64,000 bases of DNA from positions 25,964 to 89,963 of the IMG/VR virus record IMGVR_UViG_3300048580_000526; one strand, written 5' to 3'. Shown one piece after another: positions 53,109 through 62,117 of this stretch. Position numbers and translations under genes: made by a program. The notes beneath the pieces are model-generated. The model worked only from the letters and a program-made list of their open reading frames with translations. It searched no databases and was not told the origin of the DNA. The first letter of the stretch is position 1. Every line of letters begins with the position of its first letter. Origin of the DNA: a virus.

Positions 53109-53522
53109 ATGCCAGTAACATATACGGGAATCACCAGAACCACATCATCCCCGATTTACACAGATTTTAACGTTTCATCATTCTTGGCTGAATGTAACGC
53201 CTTGAAAGCGTTATTGGTTCCTGGTGCATTATTGGATCACAATCTTCTTCGTCGTCTTCAGGTTGTTTACAATAATTTTGAAACCCATCGTCACACTGCT
53301 GCTGATCAATATTTCGTTGCCTATACTGGGTCTGGTAATCTTGGTGGGACTGATTCTGCTGGGACTATTACCACAACTGATCCTGTTGGGTTCAGTGCAT
53401 CCACTATAGCGGTATTATCTGGGACATTGGTTACTGCAGATTTGGTTGATGATTTTGTGTCCAAGATCAACGCTGCGAAAACCCATCTCCATAACGTTAC
53501 AGAAACATCAAACGCAAGTTAA
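53109..53522 (+). CDS. small late protein with two helix-HxH repeats
   Basis: GATAAATA box at about 53072-79; NNFETHRHTAAD and NAAKTHLHNVTE. Confidence 0.65.
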   Translation: MPVTYTGITRTTSSPIYTDFNVSSFLAECNALKALLVPGALLDHNLLRRLQVVYNNFETHRHTAADQYFVAYTGSGNLGGTDSAGTITTTDPVGFSASTIAVLSGTLVTADLVDDFVSKINAAKTHLHNVTETSNAS

Positions 53523-53584
53523 ATATTGAATGTTATGGTTAATATTTGGTATGATAAATAAATATAAAATAGGAGAATAAGATT

Positions 53585-54208
53585 ATGACAGATAATACTG
53601 TACCAACAACAACTAATACTTCGACAGTACCAGATGCCCCAACTAAAGCACCAGATGACACTGTTGATGCACAAACTTATCAACAGATGTTAGATATCCT
53701 GAAGGATTTGACTGACCACACCCATACATTTTATGACAGTTATGGTACCGCTTGCCAATGCAACTGCGCTTGTTTTGCAGGTGATACTTTAATTCATACC
53801 AGAGAAGGTGTGATGACAGCATTTAACTTGACTGGAAAAACAGTTGAAGTGTACTGTATTGATGATGTTTGGAGATCAGCTACTTGGAAATCTTATGGAT
53901 TACAAAAACTTTGGTCATTGACATTAAATAACGGGGAAGTTATTCGTGTAACTGAAGATCATCGTTGGCCGGTAATAGGTAAATCAGAAGTGGTATTAAC
54001 CAGAGATTTAATGGGTGAAAAACTTCATTGTAAGTTTGGGGATTTCAGAGAAGTAGAAGTTGTTGGTGTAACTGATTTGGGAATTTATGAATTGGTTCAT
54101 TGTTGTGAAGAACCAGTGACAGAAACTTTCGCTTTGGCTTCTGGAATTATTACTAAAAATTGTAATTGCACATGCTGCACTCGTGGGATGGTTTGGGGTG
54201 TGGCATAA
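53585..54208 (+). CDS. Cys-rich (Cx)n precursor-like protein interrupted by a mini-intein
   Basis: Late box 53553-60 and AGGAG RBS; DHTHTFYD..TACQCNCA|CFAGDT...IITKN|CNCTCCTRGMVWGVA. Confidence 0.8.
   Translation: MTDNTVPTTTNTSTVPDAPTKAPDDTVDAQTYQQMLDILKDLTDHTHTFYDSYGTACQCNCACFAGDTLIHTREGVMTAFNLTGKTVEVYCIDDVWRSATWKSYGLQKLWSLTLNNGEVIRVTEDHRWPVIGKSEVVLTRDLMGEKLHCKFGDFREVEVVGVTDLGIYELVHCCEEPVTETFALASGIITKNCNCTCCTRGMVWGVA
53771..54160 (+). mobile_element. mini-intein (Hint domain, 130 aa, no homing endonuclease)
   Basis: Block A CFAGDTLIHT, block B VTEDHRW (TxxH), block F/G ETFALASGIITKN followed by Cys +1. Confidence 0.85.
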
Positions 54209-54258
54209 ATGTCACAGTGTGATAAAAATAACACTATATTATTTGAAGAAATGATCTC

Positions 54259-54287
54259 TTGACAGAAAAGATAAATAATGTTATTAT
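54259..54287 (+). promoter_or_regulatory. sigma70 promoter with a nested late box
   Basis: TTGACA 54259-64, N17, TATTAT 54282-87; GATAAATA 54270-77 inside the spacer. Confidence 0.6.
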
Positions 54288-54313
54288 TGTTTTAACAGAT
54301 GGAGAAGACTATC

Positions 54314-54517
54314 ATGCGTAAATTGACCAAGGAAGAAATTGCGGCAAAGATCGCCAGTGCAAAGATTTATGCGGCAGCCCACCCTGAAATTCATTCAGAA
54401 TGGGATGCTGCTGTTGCAGAGTTAAAATCAAGGGTTTATATTGGTGAGTCTGGTGCCTATACTACTCCTGTCAAGGAAGGCGACCTTATTCGTATTGACG
54501 AGAATGATACAGAATGA
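54314..54517 (+). CDS. small protein, copy 1 (putative antitoxin)
   Basis: MRKLTKEEIAAKIASAKIY...YIGESGAYTTPVKEGDLI; ATGA overlap with the next gene. Confidence 0.6.
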   Translation: MRKLTKEEIAAKIASAKIYAAAHPEIHSEWDAAVAELKSRVYIGESGAYTTPVKEGDLIRIDENDTE

Positions 54518-55158
54518 GATGGGCTGAGATAATTACAGAAGTAGTTTTTAAAACAACCAAACAATATGGTATTCAACAAATTTTTGTGTCTAAACAATTT
54601 ATGAAAAGTTTTGACTCTTTTAAATTGATGGACAAAGATTTAGAAAAAGATTTAAATGAATTTTTATTTAAAAAAATAAGTGGTACGACTTTAAGTAAAG
54701 AAGCTCCACTATATGGTCCATTGGTTGGATTGTACCATTATCATCTTCGTCATGGTAGGGTGATTATAATTTATGCGTCAGATAATGAACATATAGAAAT
54801 TTATGCAATTGGTGGGCATGAATATGATGGTGATAATGCCCAACGACAATTGCGTAAAAGCATTAAGGGAATGACACAAGATAGTTTTGAAGTTTGGCAT
54901 TTACCAACTAATAAAATTGAATTTGCCAAACAACAATTATCTGTTGTTGAGAATTTGCTTTATTCATTGGTTGATGAAGTGGATATTTTAAAAGAGTATT
55001 TATCCACTGAAAATGGAATTATTGTTGATTTGATCACGCAAGAATTAAATATTTCTAACAAGACTGAATTTAAAGAATTTCTTTTAACTTGGGAAAAACA
55101 ATATAAAATATCGTTTGATAAATTTATCAAACGATTAATACCTGCTAATACAAATTAA
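54514..55158 (+). CDS. YafQ/RelE-family mRNA interferase-like protein with a C-terminal extension
   Basis: SKQFMKSF...EAPLYGPLVGLYHYHL..GRVIIIY...IEIYAIGGH follows the YafQ pattern DHPL.G...H....LIY....GTH. Confidence 0.6.
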   Translation: MRWAEIITEVVFKTTKQYGIQQIFVSKQFMKSFDSFKLMDKDLEKDLNEFLFKKISGTTLSKEAPLYGPLVGLYHYHLRHGRVIIIYASDNEHIEIYAIGGHEYDGDNAQRQLRKSIKGMTQDSFEVWHLPTNKIEFAKQQLSVVENLLYSLVDEVDILKEYLSTENGIIVDLITQELNISNKTEFKEFLLTWEKQYKISFDKFIKRLIPANTN

Positions 55159-55171
55159 TGAGGAAAATAAC

Positions 55172-55399
55172 ATGCGTAAATTCACCAAGGAAGAAATTGC
55201 GGCAAAGATCGCCAGTGCAAAGATTTATATGGATGCCCATCCACATCTAAAAGACATTGATTTTAAGAAAATTATGGATGAATTTGAAACTCGTGAATAT
55301 ATTGGTGAATCTGGTGCTTATACTACACCTGTCAAGGAAGGCGACCTTATACCATTTGATGAGAATGAACAATTAGAATTTCATTTTATGAAACAATAA
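55172..55399 (+). CDS. small protein, copy 2 (putative antitoxin)
   Basis: MRKFTKEEIAAKIASAKIY...YIGESGAYTTPVKEGDLI. Confidence 0.6.
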   Translation: MRKFTKEEIAAKIASAKIYMDAHPHLKDIDFKKIMDEFETREYIGESGAYTTPVKEGDLIPFDENEQLEFHFMKQ

Positions 55400-56389: not shown

Positions 56390-56695
56390 TCAAAGGATTA
56401 AAAATTTTAATTTTATGTATGAACATATATCCTTATGTTTGAAATACCAACATCCTCCCCAAAATTCCCATAAAGCATTTTTGTTTATTGGGAAAACATC
56501 CAATCTTGATTCTTCTAATATTAATGGATCGCCATATGTTTGTTTGAGATAATCATGAATTATTTTCCATTGCTCCATTGAAAGATCATCATTGCTTTCT
56601 ATTTTATATGGAAAATAATCGTTTAGGTACATATCAATTTGTTCTGTATGTGAGAAATTAAATTCTTTGAAATATGTTAAATCCATTTTAATCAT
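56390..56695 (-). CDS. hypothetical protein
   Basis: Overlaps the rSAM stop; C-terminal WYFKHKDICSYIKLKF resembles the motif in the neighbouring gene. Confidence 0.55.
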   Translation of the reverse strand: MIKMDLTYFKEFNFSHTEQIDMYLNDYFPYKIESNDDLSMEQWKIIHDYLKQTYGDPLILEESRLDVFPINKNALWEFWGGCWYFKHKDICSYIKLKFLIL

Positions 56696-58964
56696 GCCTA
56701 AAAGGTGTTATTTGTTTTAATTCTGTATATAAAATTGCTATTTTTTTGCACATATCATCAGGTTGAAATACAGGTCTACCTGCGACAGCATTCCCTGCTG
56801 GACATTGGTAACAATAAAGTGTATTACAGTCTTGGCATTCTGGTAATTTTTGTAATTTTTCATATTCTGACTGTATTTCCATAATGGCAACACGATTGAT
56901 TTCATTTTTGAATAAATTTCCTAAAATGGTATGGGGAACGTCTTCTTTTCTTGAGACGAATTTATAACACCCTGAAAAATCGCCAGAACCATCGATTGAA
57001 ATTTCATCCATTGCTGCAGACATACATCCAGTTCTACCTTTTTCCCCAACTCCTTCTGAAATTTGGAATTTTAATAAATCTTTGTGGGTCGATAAGATGT
57101 TTTTTATAGTTGATGAAAATGTTTCCCAAGTTTTATCATTCCAAGAAATCCAACCATCTGTAAAAGAATTTATCAATGGGTGAAATATAAATTTTCTAAC
57201 GCCAATATTATATAATGATGTGAACCAATGATTTATTTCATTGGTTTGGTCTGGTGTAAAAGTAGCCTGTATGGTTAATTGGTGTGGTTGTGTAATTGAA
57301 GCAATTAATTTTATATTATCAATAATTTTTTGGATTTGTTCTGTTGTTAGTTTTCTATTTTTGGTATTACCATTGAGTGAATCTAATGATACAGTCATTC
57401 TAACGTCTTGATATGAAAAATATTCTTGGATAAATTGTGGTGTTAATAATAGTCCGTTTGTTACAACGCTTATGGTTTGATGTCCAACAGATTTTGTTAT
57501 ATCATTTTTGTATTGGTTCATGAATGATAAAATTAATTTATTATGGATTAACGGTTCTCCCCCAAAAAATTGAACATATTTAAAATATTTAGAATTGATA
57601 TTAGCAAGAAAATCCCATGCTTGTTTGATTTTTTCTGGTGTAAATGGTTCATAATTTTTGACGTGTTGCATATAACAGTAATCACATTTTAGATTGCAAG
57701 AATTGGTTAAAAGCAAATCTACATATTTTAGGTTGTAGAATAGGTCATTGGCATCAGAAAGAACGTTTGTTTTTGTAACTTGTTGATTTTGTTCTGGTTT
57801 TTTATTGATATGTTTGATTAAATCATCTTCTTTGTTCAAATCATAATTGTAACGATTTAGAAAAATATCAATAAGCTTTGTAAAATCCTTGCAAGGACTT
57901 TTATCCAATGTTTGGTTATCTGCCCAAGTATAATAAAAATGAATATCGTTGCATATTGGTGGGTCCATATAGATGCAAGATTTGCATTTCTCTAAAATTG
58001 GTGGTTCCCAGTCATGGTATATTTCAATCTTATCTTTCCATTGTCCTTTTCTGGCTTTTTCATTATGATATTCGGCAGTGACATATTCTGGATATAGATA
58101 CCCATCTGCAGAAAGAATATAGTAGTCATAATTATCTGTTGACGGCAATCCAATATCTGGTGTTACCCCATCAAGACACACAGGTATTTTGTACACATAA
58201 AGCACTTCCAAAAATTGTTTCATTCTGGTAAAATATTCATTTAGTGAAAATCCTGGGATGGTTAATAGGTCAATGAATCCAACGTTTGGTTTATAGGTAA
58301 ATCTTGCAAGCACCAACGACAATTTATTTATTTTATTTCTGTGTTGGGAAAATAGCTTTACAATTGGGGCAATCCTGTCAATGGAAAAGAAATCCCTACT
58401 ATCTGGTGGAACTGTATAGTATAGTTCTATATTGGAAACATTTTGGTGCAAAAAATCCAACGTATCATCGATTAATAATGGCGGGGAATTTGTTGGCGAT
58501 TCTCTCAATGATTCTTGATAGGAAAAATCATAACTCAAACTAATCATTAGACGTTGGTTCCATTTTTGGAAGAAATCTTTATTTTTTAGGATTAGTAAAC
58601 CATTTGTGACGATTTGGAATTTCATTTTTTGGCAAACATTTTCCAACACACCTGTCATAATATCATCCATAATTTCAACCCAAAGTAATGGTTCCCCACC
58701 ATAAAATGTTATAAAATCCAATGGGGATTCTGAACCAACGTTGAAACTTTTGATAAAATTGATAATTTGGGGAACATCAGATTTTTTCATTTGAATATTA
58801 CCATGAAGTTCTTTGATTGCATCTCTGTCACAATAGGTACAATTTAGATTACAAGTTGACCCAAGATGGATTGAAAGATATACCCCTCTCCCTTCGATGT
58901 GACGATAATCTCCAAGATTGCATGAACGATTTTTTAAATATTCGCTATATTGTTGGGATGGCAT
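56688..58964 (-). CDS. fused tandem radical SAM enzyme (two rSAM domains, each with a SPASM/twitch-like Cys tail); putative peptide maturase
   Basis: CNLNCTYC + FYGGEPLL + VTNGLL + CKSC..C..C; CNLKCDYC + FFGGEPLI + VTNGLL + GC...SIDGSGDFSGC...CQDCNTLYCYQCPAGN...DMC. Confidence 0.9.
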   Translation of the reverse strand: MPSQQYSEYLKNRSCNLGDYRHIEGRGVYLSIHLGSTCNLNCTYCDRDAIKELHGNIQMKKSDVPQIINFIKSFNVGSESPLDFITFYGGEPLLWVEIMDDIMTGVLENVCQKMKFQIVTNGLLILKNKDFFQKWNQRLMISLSYDFSYQESLRESPTNSPPLLIDDTLDFLHQNVSNIELYYTVPPDSRDFFSIDRIAPIVKLFSQHRNKINKLSLVLARFTYKPNVGFIDLLTIPGFSLNEYFTRMKQFLEVLYVYKIPVCLDGVTPDIGLPSTDNYDYYILSADGYLYPEYVTAEYHNEKARKGQWKDKIEIYHDWEPPILEKCKSCIYMDPPICNDIHFYYTWADNQTLDKSPCKDFTKLIDIFLNRYNYDLNKEDDLIKHINKKPEQNQQVTKTNVLSDANDLFYNLKYVDLLLTNSCNLKCDYCYMQHVKNYEPFTPEKIKQAWDFLANINSKYFKYVQFFGGEPLIHNKLILSFMNQYKNDITKSVGHQTISVVTNGLLLTPQFIQEYFSYQDVRMTVSLDSLNGNTKNRKLTTEQIQKIIDNIKLIASITQPHQLTIQATFTPDQTNEINHWFTSLYNIGVRKFIFHPLINSFTDGWISWNDKTWETFSSTIKNILSTHKDLLKFQISEGVGEKGRTGCMSAAMDEISIDGSGDFSGCYKFVSRKEDVPHTILGNLFKNEINRVAIMEIQSEYEKLQKLPECQDCNTLYCYQCPAGNAVAGRPVFQPDDMCKKIAILYTELKQITPFRHD

Positions 58965-59948
58965 CTAATTACTCCTCAATACGGTGAATGACCAATCAAA
59001 TTCTTTGGTACAAGTTTCCCAAAATGCCCCTGTGGAAATTTTAATGTTTAGGTAATTGAAATTGGATATTGGGGTAATGTTCAATTTATTATTCTCCCAT
59101 GAAAATTTCATATTGGTATTTATCAAGACATCTTTGGAAATGTCCAACGAATGACCAATTAAACCAATTTCAGAACCTGACTTATGAACACCATTAAATG
59201 TTTCCCAACTTTTATTACTGAAAAAATCCAACTTGAATGGACCTTCTGTTATAACGACATTATCATTTCTAAATTGAATATTTTCAAAATCCAAATTAAA
59301 TATTCTTGTTTTCAATGGTTCTGTATTTTCTGCAAAAATGGTAAAATCTTTTGATTTATTAACGAACAATACCTTATTTGATATTAGACTATTATTCAAC
59401 ACCATAATATAAATTGGTAAGTTCCCCAATTTGAACATTGATATTGGGAACAGGGATAAATTTTGATGTTTGGAATAATCAGTTTCAATTTCTTGATTAT
59501 TATAAAACACTGTTTGAGATAATGGATTGTATAATTGTCCTTTATCATTTTTTGTTAAAAAATTCATATATTGGAATGGGTTCTTGGCTTTTTCTTCATT
59601 GAAATCCACTATTCCATAAAACGACGACCCTGCTATTGTTGGATGCTTTTCTTCATCACAATATTTCAACATTGCGTTTATGTTTATATTATAGCTATAA
59701 TCGTATTTAAAATTATTGGCATTTTTTGGGATGATAGTTAGAAGATTTTCTGGTTGATTATTGTCCCGAATTAGTTTCCACATATGTTGATTTTGTCTAA
59801 ATGGGAAACGATATTCAAGCGAAGTCCCAGACACCAATTGGGAATAGTTGTCTTCATCATCTGGACCACGATAATTTCTTATATATTCTTCCACAGAAGA
59901 AAACAAGTCATTATCTGGTATGCTATTTTGGATAAAAATGTATTTCAT
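58965..59948 (-). CDS. unknown protein, rSAM-operon paralog 3
   Basis: Stop codon directly abuts the rSAM ATG; FKLGNLPIYIMVLNN. Confidence 0.75.
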   Translation of the reverse strand: MKYIFIQNSIPDNDLFSSVEEYIRNYRGPDDEDNYSQLVSGTSLEYRFPFRQNQHMWKLIRDNNQPENLLTIIPKNANNFKYDYSYNININAMLKYCDEEKHPTIAGSSFYGIVDFNEEKAKNPFQYMNFLTKNDKGQLYNPLSQTVFYNNQEIETDYSKHQNLSLFPISMFKLGNLPIYIMVLNNSLISNKVLFVNKSKDFTIFAENTEPLKTRIFNLDFENIQFRNDNVVITEGPFKLDFFSNKSWETFNGVHKSGSEIGLIGHSLDISKDVLINTNMKFSWENNKLNITPISNFNYLNIKISTGAFWETCTKEFDWSFTVLRSN

Positions 59949-59985
59949 TGTTTGATTATAAAATAATTCTTTTAGATATTCAAAT

Positions 59986-61215
59986 TTAATCTTTTATGAA
60001 TTGTACTTTGGATAAATCTTTTATGAATTCGTCAACAGTTTGATTTTCATTTTTCGCAATACCATCAATCAATAATCCATTGGCGTCATATCTATCAAAA
60101 ATTTCTGGATTGTTTGGAACCAATGAAGTTTTATTGATTATGAATTCACAATACATTTTATTTGATTTTTGTAAAGCATCCATTTCTTTTCCAAGATTCA
60201 ATTTAACTTTCATATATGTTTTTTGTCCATTTTTCAATCCTGTAACATCAAATGTTATCCTATAAGACCCCACAGCCCCATAAAGAACTTTATTAACAGA
60301 GAACGGGATTGTGGTTTCAATATCAAAAATACTATCTGGAATTTTTTCAATATGATTATATAATGTTGCGTTATTTTCCCATTCATATTTTTCGATTGGT
60401 GAAAAAATTTCCATACTGAAGGTATCTTGGCTAACATGTAAATCATACTTTCCAGCCAAATAATCAACATTGAAGAATACAGAATTTAAAAATTCGTGTT
60501 TGAAGGTGAAATTTTCTTGTTTGCAAGTTTCAGTTTGAACATCCCCACAATAAGTGTGTGGTGAAATTTTTTCTTGGATGATTTCACTGTTGGTAATCAT
60601 GACATATATTGAAGTGTTTTCTAATTTGTTGACTGTGAAGACTGTAATTAATTTGTCCTTGCTCTCAACTATTTTATCATTATCACAACGATATAACGAA
60701 CCACCATTCAAGTACATGAAGAACATATTTTTTAACATATCTGCTGGGCTTATTGATTTTAATGTTGTTCCATCAATGCCATAAATCACTAATGATTGTT
60801 TTTTATCAACCCAATCAAGAATTTCCCAAGAAGGCATTTCTCTATAATAATGGGGTAATGTTTTAAAAATCCTATCAACTGGTGTTGTTGGGGTAATATC
60901 TTTAACATAATTGGGCATATCCAAAATAGTAAATGGGCTTTCAAAATAAAACCTATCTGGTCTTGGGTCTGTATCTTTTTTAGCCATGAGATTGGTATCA
61001 AATGGCTTTGGGTCTGTTATCAACACAAATCTTGCCTTATGAGTTGTGCCAGTTTGGGAAAAAGTGTTTATCTTACTACTTTGGATTGGAATATTGGTTA
61101 TAGAATTTTCATCATGCCCATGATTGAACATATCAATACTGGATAGAATTTCTTTACCTTTTTGGGTACCATCTGTAATAATGAGGAATCGTTTTCCATT
61201 GTTTATTGTTTTCAT
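59986..61215 (-). CDS. unknown protein, rSAM-operon paralog 2
   Basis: NKLENTSIYVMITNS; collinear similarity to both neighbours. Confidence 0.75.
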   Translation of the reverse strand: MKTINNGKRFLIITDGTQKGKEILSSIDMFNHGHDENSITNIPIQSSKINTFSQTGTTHKARFVLITDPKPFDTNLMAKKDTDPRPDRFYFESPFTILDMPNYVKDITPTTPVDRIFKTLPHYYREMPSWEILDWVDKKQSLVIYGIDGTTLKSISPADMLKNMFFMYLNGGSLYRCDNDKIVESKDKLITVFTVNKLENTSIYVMITNSEIIQEKISPHTYCGDVQTETCKQENFTFKHEFLNSVFFNVDYLAGKYDLHVSQDTFSMEIFSPIEKYEWENNATLYNHIEKIPDSIFDIETTIPFSVNKVLYGAVGSYRITFDVTGLKNGQKTYMKVKLNLGKEMDALQKSNKMYCEFIINKTSLVPNNPEIFDRYDANGLLIDGIAKNENQTVDEFIKDLSKVQFIKD

Positions 61216-61217
61216 CG

Positions 61218-62117
61218 TTATACCTTATAAATGTTGTAATCGTAGAATGTTTTTTGGGATTCGAAGATATAGTTATTCAAGAACTCGTTTGAATTCAATT
61301 TGATGCACAAATACCCGGTGGTCATGCTTGGAACATTAGACAAATCTAATGTTAAAATCGTCCCCTCTAAAGTGAATGGGATATTGGAACTGACTGTTAT
61401 CAAGTCTGCTAAATTTGGGGGCAACAATGGTTTAACATCATTTGTAAAAAGTTCAATCGTCAAAGTGTCTTCATTAACGAACACTGTTTTCTTCCCGATA
61501 ATTTGTTCCACTCCAGCAGTAAAATTGACTGTGAAGAATTTATTTTTTAGGTATTCGGTTGAAGAAGATGCTATAATGGTTGAAGTTGAACTTTTAATAG
61601 TCATCCCTCTATTAGCATTAACCACAGCAGCGGAATTCAAAATCCCTGTATAGATTGGAAGGGTACCAACTTTAAAGAATGTTGCGAATGAGAAGAAGAA
61701 CGCTGGCATGGATTCATCTGCCACAACCAATTCTGCGGTTTCGCAATTTATGAATGAACCATCTGGATTTCTTGAATAATACCCCAACCCTGTTAAAAGA
61801 TTTTGGTCTGTTACCAATCCCGGTACTGGGGACATAATATAGCAGTTATTGTATCTGTCACAATATTGTTTAATATTGGCTACTGAAACAACACGATGGA
61901 AATCTGTAGCATTTGGGTTTGTAATATCGTTGATGTTGAAAATTCTGTGCCCGAAAATTAGATTATCATTTGATTTGTCAAAATATAGTGTGAATAGATA
62001 GTTATTATTATGGAAGAAAGTGTATTGGGGTGCTTGTCCCCTTACATAATTTTCGATTTCATAAATCATATCTTTTTGGTTTAAAGCACTATCTTGGATA
62101 ATATATAAATCATTCAT
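61218..62117 (-). CDS. unknown protein, rSAM-operon paralog 1
   Basis: FKVGTLPIYTGILNS; AAGGAG RBS; late box GATAAATA 62139-46 (-). Confidence 0.75.
   Translation of the reverse strand: MNDLYIIQDSALNQKDMIYEIENYVRGQAPQYTFFHNNNYLFTLYFDKSNDNLIFGHRIFNINDITNPNATDFHRVVSVANIKQYCDRYNNCYIMSPVPGLVTDQNLLTGLGYYSRNPDGSFINCETAELVVADESMPAFFFSFATFFKVGTLPIYTGILNSAAVVNANRGMTIKSSTSTIIASSSTEYLKNKFFTVNFTAGVEQIIGKKTVFVNEDTLTIELFTNDVKPLLPPNLADLITVSSNIPFTLEGTILTLDLSNVPSMTTGYLCIKLNSNEFLNNYIFESQKTFYDYNIYKV

Follow-up and report, generated by a model that had tools for sequence, protein, structure and literature searches.

INTRODUCTION

To our knowledge, nearly all described inteins reside in large enzymes that act in replication, repair or nucleotide metabolism. 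Class 1 mini-inteins of the DnaE and DnaB type, whose host is a replication enzyme, have in common with the element described here an N-terminal Cys1, a block B TxxH motif, a terminal Asn followed by a Cys at position +1, a length of ~130-140 aa and the lack of an endonuclease. Class 3 inteins are recognized by a signature consisting of Trp at B:12, Cys at F:4 and Thr at G:5 (PMC5222942, PMC3196547). They are thought to have originated from a phage intein after loss of the first nucleophile, and class 1 inteins with Cys at F:4 also exist, as a polyphyletic set (PMC3196547). Very short exteins have been described for the intein of Arth_1007 of Arthrobacter sp. FB24, in which the exteins total 66 aa, the intein does not splice and the gene is a pseudogene (PMC3196547).

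The locus described here also resembles Cys-rich RiPP systems (the ranthipeptides PapA/PapB, SCIFF/CteB, and QhpD), in which, as in the present case, a small Cys-rich peptide is encoded beside a radical-SAM/SPASM enzyme. No natural RiPP-type precursor with an intein was encountered in the literature searches made, which returned engineering uses only.

The DNA studied here comes from a lake-water phage. The window, by which we mean the whole stretch of 64,000 nucleotides that was analyzed, is part of a 90-kb IMG/VR virus record. A first-pass annotation of its sequence had proposed that a Hint-type mini-intein splits the Cys core of a tiny precursor, and had suggested that it might be a domesticated domain that gates maturation or, instead, one that releases a 15-aa peptide by C-terminal cleavage.

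RESULTS

A small precursor is interrupted within its Cys core

The precursor open reading frame, which was read in the window and is real, encodes 207 aa (Table 1). All coordinates in the first-pass annotation proved correct, namely those of the reading frame and of the insert at residues 63-192. The box upstream of the gene is presumed to serve as its promoter, a role taken over from the earlier annotation. The N-extein consists of a variable T/P-rich start, a conserved helix (TYQQMLDILKDLTD), the motif HTH, the sequence FYDSYGTA and the first three Cys residues (CQCNCA), and its invariant positions in the alignment of the peptide family (A3) are H45, H47, D51, C57, C59 and C61. The insert starts with CFAGDT, contains TEDHRW and HCCEEP, ends with GIITKN and is followed immediately by Cys193. 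Its removal fuses the CQCNCA segment to the C-extein and yields a 77-aa product with seven Cys residues arranged as CxCxCxCxCxCC, a register that had been predicted earlier and is confirmed by intein-free alleles with the identical junction; it does not arise by chance.

Table 1. Positions in the window of the intein-bearing precursor gene, its catalytic residues and neighboring genes.
Feature	Position	Strand	Basis or remark
GATAAATA box, T4-type late-promoter-like	53553-53560	+	upstream of peptide gene; read directly
Shine-Dalgarno AGGAG	53571-53575	+	9 nt 5′ of ATG
Precursor open reading frame	53585-54208	+	read in window
N-extein, 62 aa	53585-53770	+	translation and family alignment A3
Mini-intein, 130 aa, Hint fold, without endonuclease domain	53771-54160	+	residues 63-192; HMM, profile, model
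C-extein, 15 aa, CNCTCCTRGMVWGVA and stop	54161-54208	+	Cys193 is the +1 nucleophile; matches P0004 and P0005 C-termini
Cys63, intein Cys1, block A nucleophile	53771-53773	+	invariant in A4
Block B T-E-D-H-R-W (Thr B:7, His B:10, Trp B:12)	53951-53968	+	A4 invariants T61, H64, W66
Cys173-Cys174 in block F, the first at F:4	54101-54106	+	C111 and C112 invariant in A4
Block G end, Thr190-Lys191-Asn192 (G:5, G:6, G:7)	54152-54160	+	T128 and N130 invariant in A4
137-aa protein with two helix-HxH modules, conserved peptide partner	53109-53522	+	phrog_31780; tblastn
757-aa double radical-SAM/SPASM enzyme	56688-58964	-	Pfam PF04055, two stretches
Three paralogous accessory proteins (327, 409 and 299 aa)	58965-62117	-	tblastn

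The insert has the sequence and fold of a mini-intein

One of two curated intein models passes its cutoff with the insert: NCBIfam TIGR01445 (intein_Nterm) scores 27.2 bits against a cutoff of 24.5, and Pfam PF14890 (Intein_splicing), at 13.8 bits against 35.8, falls below. A profile derived from an alignment of the intein with its relatives (A4) reached DnaE inteins in the PDB at E=3.6e-8; the class 1 DnaE and gp41-1 inteins were matched in this search, and no class 3 chain was. An AlphaFold (AF2) model of the intein alone, built with A4, has a pLDDT of 95.2 and a pTM of 0.86, and was used instead of a model of the whole reading frame, which was set aside (pLDDT 50, built on a 3-sequence alignment). 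When the intein model was compared with the PDB using Foldseek, 64 matches were obtained at E<=0.001 with inteins at the top, the Ssp and Npu DnaE inteins superimposing with TM scores of 0.86-0.88, the highest in the search, and rmsd values of 2.0-2.3 Å, while class 3 structures ranked lower (TM 0.74-0.79). Hint matches were therefore found both by HMM and by structure, and the Hint-type mini-intein of the first-pass annotation is borne out by HMM, profile and fold matches alike.

The residues required for splicing are in place. Block positions are numbered here according to PMC5222942. Invariant in A4 are Cys1, the block B Thr and His, the terminal Asn and Cys+1; in precursor numbering, block B reads T123-E-D-H126, followed by W128, and the cyclizing residue Asn192 adjoins Cys193, a pair that is itself invariant. 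Cys173 lies as far from the block F His/Glu and the terminal Asn as does the Asp at F:4 in DnaE inteins. The penultimate His (G:6), which is common in inteins and not obligatory, is absent; A4 confirms the Lys reported for this position in the earlier annotation (Lys191) and shows K, M, G or S across the family. Because all of the relatives have G, S or M there, and because DnaE inteins also lack this His, the penultimate Lys is not a peculiarity of the window copy. The block F His of the relatives (THTF) is replaced by Glu in the window copy and by Gln in P0002, the second intein-bearing allele described below.

The class 3 signature residues Trp B:12, Cys F:4 and Thr G:5 (W128, C173 and T190; W66, C111 and T128 in intein numbering) are likewise invariant in A4. 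The codons of this class 3-type triplet lie at 53966-53968, 54101-54103 and 54152-54154; it is accompanied by a second invariant Cys at F:5, and all of the relatives also possess Cys1.

Endonuclease-bearing relatives reside in large phage genes

A word-based search with the intein part identified a 1697-aa ribonucleotide reductase, P0044, which carries several inteins, the first of which is 36% identical to the window copy over its full length and ends with ILTGN followed by Cys. The same intein family occurs in viral contigs, in genes for ribonucleotide reductases (PF02867 hosts) and portal proteins (phrog_2739), and a further viral scan for relatives added one locus. The splicing domains of the relatives in A4 are 37-45% identical to that of the window copy. 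A LAGLIDADG block lies between blocks B and F in the relatives and is cleanly absent only from the window copy and P0002, which confirms the missing homing endonuclease of the earlier annotation. We also observed that the reductase hosts L033:6762-10634, L034:9707-13663 and P0044 each contain two or more inteins.

Intein-free alleles contain the predicted splice junction

A search limited to short proteins found two intein-free homologs of 74 aa, P0004 and P0005. The core of P0004, CQCNCACNCTCCTRGMVW, equals the predicted junction of the window protein letter for letter, and that of P0005 is CQCNCQCNCTCCTRGMVW. An intein also interrupts a second allele, P0002 (206 aa, 50% identical), at the same position, following the third Cys-X pair; the predicted junction of P0002 joins ACNCNCN to CTCCVRGMVW, and the resulting product, ACNCNCNCTCCVRGMVW, is that of the intein-free P0015 (74 aa). 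An exhaustive HMMER search with the N-extein yielded 38 representative clusters, almost all of 54-135 aa, and none of these has an insertion in the core; the same was true of viral loci encoding the peptide (0 of 24). Two family members were thus seen to carry the intein, compared with 38 representative clusters and 24 viral loci that are free of it; both carriers belong to one sub-branch, that ending in GMVW. Such sporadic presence within a single sub-branch is as expected of a mobile element.

The inteins of the window copy and P0002 are 44.6% identical, compared with 76.5% for the conserved part of the N-extein and 90% for the C-extein. Every catalytic position has been kept in both, which argues for ongoing selection for splicing. 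The GC content of the intein (0.354) equals the window mean (0.349), so the intein did not arrive recently. A third sequence, P0003 (154 aa, on a 1.4-kb contig), matches the family as far as CQCNCE, diverges at the intein site and is without a Cys-rich tail; it may represent another insertion, a decayed intein or copy, or an assembly fault.

The locus recurs in lake metagenomes

The locus is present in lake-water metagenomes of several studies. Contigs from other lake-water studies, in runs other than the likely source, show zero differences to the window, and bridge the N-terminal junction (X3 record 12, 53604-53877) and the C-terminal junction (X2 record 8, 54069-54313). These contigs rule out a chimeric assembly, and an assembly artefact was rejected as the source of the insertion. 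No contig skipping the intein was found in four runs, whose very low depth makes them uninformative on intein-free variants of this phage, and the metagenome scan gave no contig beyond one already found. None of the data sets that contain the locus is an RNA run, a result that has no bearing on expression at this depth.

The host is a conserved phage peptide

The extein sequences belong to a family of phage peptides of 54-135 aa, built of a helix, an HxH motif, a (C-N/Q)n repeat and an RGxL end. In A3, a variable N-terminus precedes an amphipathic helix, an invariant H-x-H followed by x3-D-x-Y, three to seven Cys residues spaced by single residues, and an invariant Arg-Gly located two residues from the C-terminus; nearly all members terminate in RG followed by two residues that are small or hydrophobic. 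Of the 129 residues lying between core Cys, 99 (77%) are Asn or Gln, and the proportion rises to 86% when Asp and Glu are included. Pfam and NCBIfam contain no precursor family that matches the window peptide.

One homolog, P0041 (256 aa), consists of a helix-HxH-CNCNCNC module, a proline-rich linker and a C-terminal domain of ~190 aa, and has no RGxL end. The fusion of the module to a larger domain hints at a structural role and suggests that the module can act as an anchor for a larger protein; the family product may be either a free peptide or a component of the tail apparatus. As a candidate alternative for its role, prompted by the HxH motifs, the extein peptide might form a homotrimer, with a trimeric metal site of the tail-fiber type around the HxH motif.

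Radical-SAM enzymes are encoded nearby

A radical-SAM cassette was detected with tblastn within a few kb of the peptide gene in 22 of the 23 loci from the family search, and also in locus L002, in the window and in the cultured Ralstonia jumbo phage RP12. Typical loci have two or three radical-SAM/SPASM enzymes among tail-fiber genes. In the 22 family-search loci and L002, the cassette comprises a radical-SAM/SPASM enzyme of 537-550 aa, a radical-SAM enzyme of 353-360 aa, a third radical-SAM enzyme and an ORF078-like protein, often with an accessory protein and a DUF3050 protein as well. Homologs of tail-fiber or virion proteins lie within a few kb in 22 of the 23 family-search loci, and in the window tail-fiber genes are found just upstream of the peptide gene (phrog_9017 and phrog_7760 matches). 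Homologs of the partner protein with two helix-HxH modules (125-137 aa) adjoin the peptide gene in the 22 family-search loci and in L002, as determined by tblastn.

The window enzymes are encoded on the opposite strand from the peptide, 2.5 kb away. The N-terminal half of the 757-aa enzyme resembles the radical-SAM enzyme of 353-360 aa and its C-terminal half that of 537-550 aa (tblastn), in B-then-A order; in all of the other loci the two halves are separate genes. Its best NCBIfam match is the PapB ranthipeptide maturase (166 bits against a cutoff of 340), with the SCIFF maturase at 93 bits against 425 and the other leading matches, QhpD and the CcpM maturases, far under their cutoffs. The three accessory proteins, for which no family match was obtained, are remotely related to the gene located after the peptide gene in other loci, and the 299-aa paralog (W_acc299) matches proteins of loci L023 and L024 that are encoded just downstream of the peptide. 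The third radical-SAM enzyme and an ORF078 homolog were not found in the 90-kb record, the completeness of which is estimated at 23%. A lead from the Atlas to FibroRumin Cys-rich RiPP targets was discarded, as its score of 0.78 is below the usable level.

The region at 54299-55399 has features of its own. Two small paralogous reading frames, of 72 and 75 aa and each beginning with MRK.TKEEIAAKIASAKIY, lie on either side of a gene for a 214-aa protein with a weakly RelE/YafQ-like N-terminus, contigs of the source run break within the region, and sequencing depth rises at 54303-54489. It seems that a repeated element lies between the peptide genes and the radical-SAM operon.

In RP12, the peptide gene encodes 65 aa and is unannotated (L003:8986-9183; AP017924.1, ~82888-83085). 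It is situated between ORF074, which encodes the HxH protein, and ORF075; three radical-SAM genes and a DUF3050/MgoB-like gene come after it. The published description of RP12 lists the radical-SAM genes, and the peptide is absent from it (PMC5468394).

DISCUSSION

Our studies indicate that the insert is very probably a genuine mini-intein of a phage lineage, probably able to splice, which resides within the Cys core of a small conserved phage peptide. The sporadic distribution of the intein, the mobile nature of its relatives and the family-wide lack of the penultimate His together point to a selfish intein that has lost its endonuclease. We propose that such an intein entered the peptide gene, lost its LAGLIDADG endonuclease and has persisted by splicing cleanly. 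Conventional protein splicing accounts most simply for the findings, and we infer the following route, in which a 207-aa precursor would be produced from a late-type transcription unit. The intein would remove itself as Cys63 forms a thioester with Ala62 and the N-extein is passed to Cys193, whereupon Asn192 would cyclize and an S-to-N shift would create the Ala62-Cys193 peptide bond. The product would be a 77-aa peptide with a contiguous CQCNCACNCTCC core, as in the intein-free relatives, and this restored core would then be modified, probably by the radical-SAM enzymes. Cys193 serves as the +1 nucleophile and is at the same time a Cys of the core; since it must presumably be a free thiol to act in splicing, splicing should precede the modification of this residue. 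The missing penultimate His and the change of the block F His to Glu could make splicing slower.

The splice junction is unusually dense in Cys, with eleven thiols in all (at -6, -4, -2, 1, +1, +3, +5 and +6, in the block F Cys-Cys pair, and others), and it is conceivable that their redox state or metal binding holds back splicing in a conditional or domesticated intein, which would allow the core to become a radical-SAM substrate only at the right time. Redox traps are documented, e.g. PDB 3nzm ('DnaE intein with N-extein in redox trap'), which was among the fold matches, and inteins sensitive to oxidative stress are documented as well (PMC6195587); in addition, the intein has been at its site long enough for the copies in two phages to diverge to 45% identity. 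Nevertheless, we consider both the conditional intein and its proposed effect on timing unlikely. Most members of the family have no intein, so that maturation does not depend on it, its closest relatives are mobile inteins of the ordinary kind, with the same residues, in unrelated genes, and the copies hosted by the peptide show no specific feature apart from the loss of the endonuclease. The gate suggested in the first-pass annotation is likewise disfavored by the sporadic distribution of the intein, by the endonuclease in its closest portal and reductase relatives and by the fact that the penultimate Lys reflects a family trait. A redox or metal influence on splicing as such would be conceivable. 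A broader and rather unlikely proposal holds that the intein is a maturation checkpoint, which keeps the halves of the core apart, requires Cys193 and its own thiols to be reduced and unmodified, permits cross-linking only after splicing and responds to redox state or metal load, and that at the same time its family, with Cys1 beside the class 3 signature, could be a living example of the proposed class 1 ancestor of class 3 or could use both nucleophiles.

That the intein is inactive or decaying and the gene effectively a pseudogene, like Arth_1007, is very unlikely. The only published case of tiny exteins that was found is indeed a pseudogene (PMC3196547), and the window copy has neither the penultimate His nor the block F His, but, unlike Arth_1007, it retains every essential residue, namely Cys1, His B:10, Cys F:4, the terminal Asn and Cys+1. 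Two alleles of 45% identity share the essential residues, the reading frame is uninterrupted, the exteins are strongly conserved and have real intein-free orthologs, and the allele is unchanged across several lake samples. Hint domains that only cleave exist, and structures of BIL and Hedgehog domains were among the fold matches. A domain of this kind might free the 15-aa C-terminal or the 62-aa N-terminal part with no ligation, and in some inteins the steps of splicing can become uncoupled when the penultimate His is missing. This is extremely improbable, as the flanks constitute one contiguous conserved core in all of the intein-free relatives, Cys1, Asn and Cys+1 are all present, and inteins that truly splice give the best matches in both sequence and fold. 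The release of a 15-aa peptide by C-terminal cleavage, as suggested in the earlier annotation, conflicts with the finding that the 12 residues after the intein (CNCTCCTRGMVW) belong to a core found uninterrupted in all relatives without an intein, and a cleavage-only domain conflicts with the retention of both N- and C-terminal splicing residues.

Understood as a splicing-competent mini-intein, the element itself is ordinary and its location unusual: its host is a 77-aa peptide, in which it is inserted in the middle of a motif that radical-SAM enzymes presumably modify. That the host gene is real is evident from the matching intein-free alleles, and this host is the shortest that we found for an apparently functional intein. 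For intein research, the locus is a compact natural system that combines a junction very rich in Cys with Cys1 and a class 3-like signature, and its short exteins would simplify splicing assays by mass spectrometry. The intein also marks the functional core of an undescribed family of phage peptides, which occurs in the cultured phage RP12 and in many uncultured phages, beside tail-fiber genes, and much of the wider interest lies in this peptide and its radical-SAM cassette. On the basis of neighborhood and composition, the peptide is most likely a substrate of the neighboring radical-SAM/SPASM enzymes, which are likely to introduce cross-links of the thioether or a related type.

The 77% Asn/Gln content between the Cys residues of the peptide would suit thioethers to side-chain carbons, of the kind to be considered in comparison with the Cys-rich RiPP systems. 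The window enzyme, on the other hand, scores far below the family cutoffs of the PapB and SCIFF maturases, and the system differs from these RiPP systems in being encoded by phages among tail-fiber genes, with two or three radical-SAM enzymes and an HxH partner. Neither a protease nor an exporter was seen in the phage peptide/radical-SAM system.

With respect to the intein, the LAGLIDADG inteins of phage portal and ribonucleotide reductase genes (L028, L030-L034 and P0044) have splicing domains that are 36-45% identical to that of the window copy, and share with it the signature EEVFCCEEPxTHTFxL..G..T.N followed by C, as well as Cys1, Cys+1 and the lack of the penultimate His. They contain an endonuclease insert of ~160-200 aa and are hosted by large essential genes. 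The window copy has no such insert, and Glu occupies the position of the block F His. The class 1 mini-inteins of Npu and Ssp DnaE and Ssp DnaB (PDB 4kl5, 1zde and 1mi8) have the same Hint fold (TM 0.83-0.88, rmsd 2.0-2.7 Å), although sequence identity to the window copy is only ~20%. The window copy differs from them in having a Cys-Cys pair in block F, where DnaE inteins have Asp at F:4, and a Trp at B:12, and its 77-aa Cys-rich host peptide has little in common with a replication enzyme.

Very short exteins flank both the Arth_1007 intein and that of the window, but Arth_1007 is without His B:10 and Cys F:4, while the window intein keeps all of the essential residues. Furthermore, the window exteins, unlike those of Arth_1007, form a conserved gene with intein-free orthologs. 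In relation to class 3 inteins (MP-Be DnaB, Msm DnaB-1 and MchDnaB1), the window family has all three signature residues and is borne by phages, as has been proposed for the class 3 ancestor. Since class 3 inteins are by definition devoid of Cys1 and the family possesses it, the family falls outside class 3, and it is closer to the class 1 DnaE inteins in both sequence and fold. It could be either a class 1 lineage with Cys at F:4 or akin to the proposed phage ancestor of the class 3 inteins.
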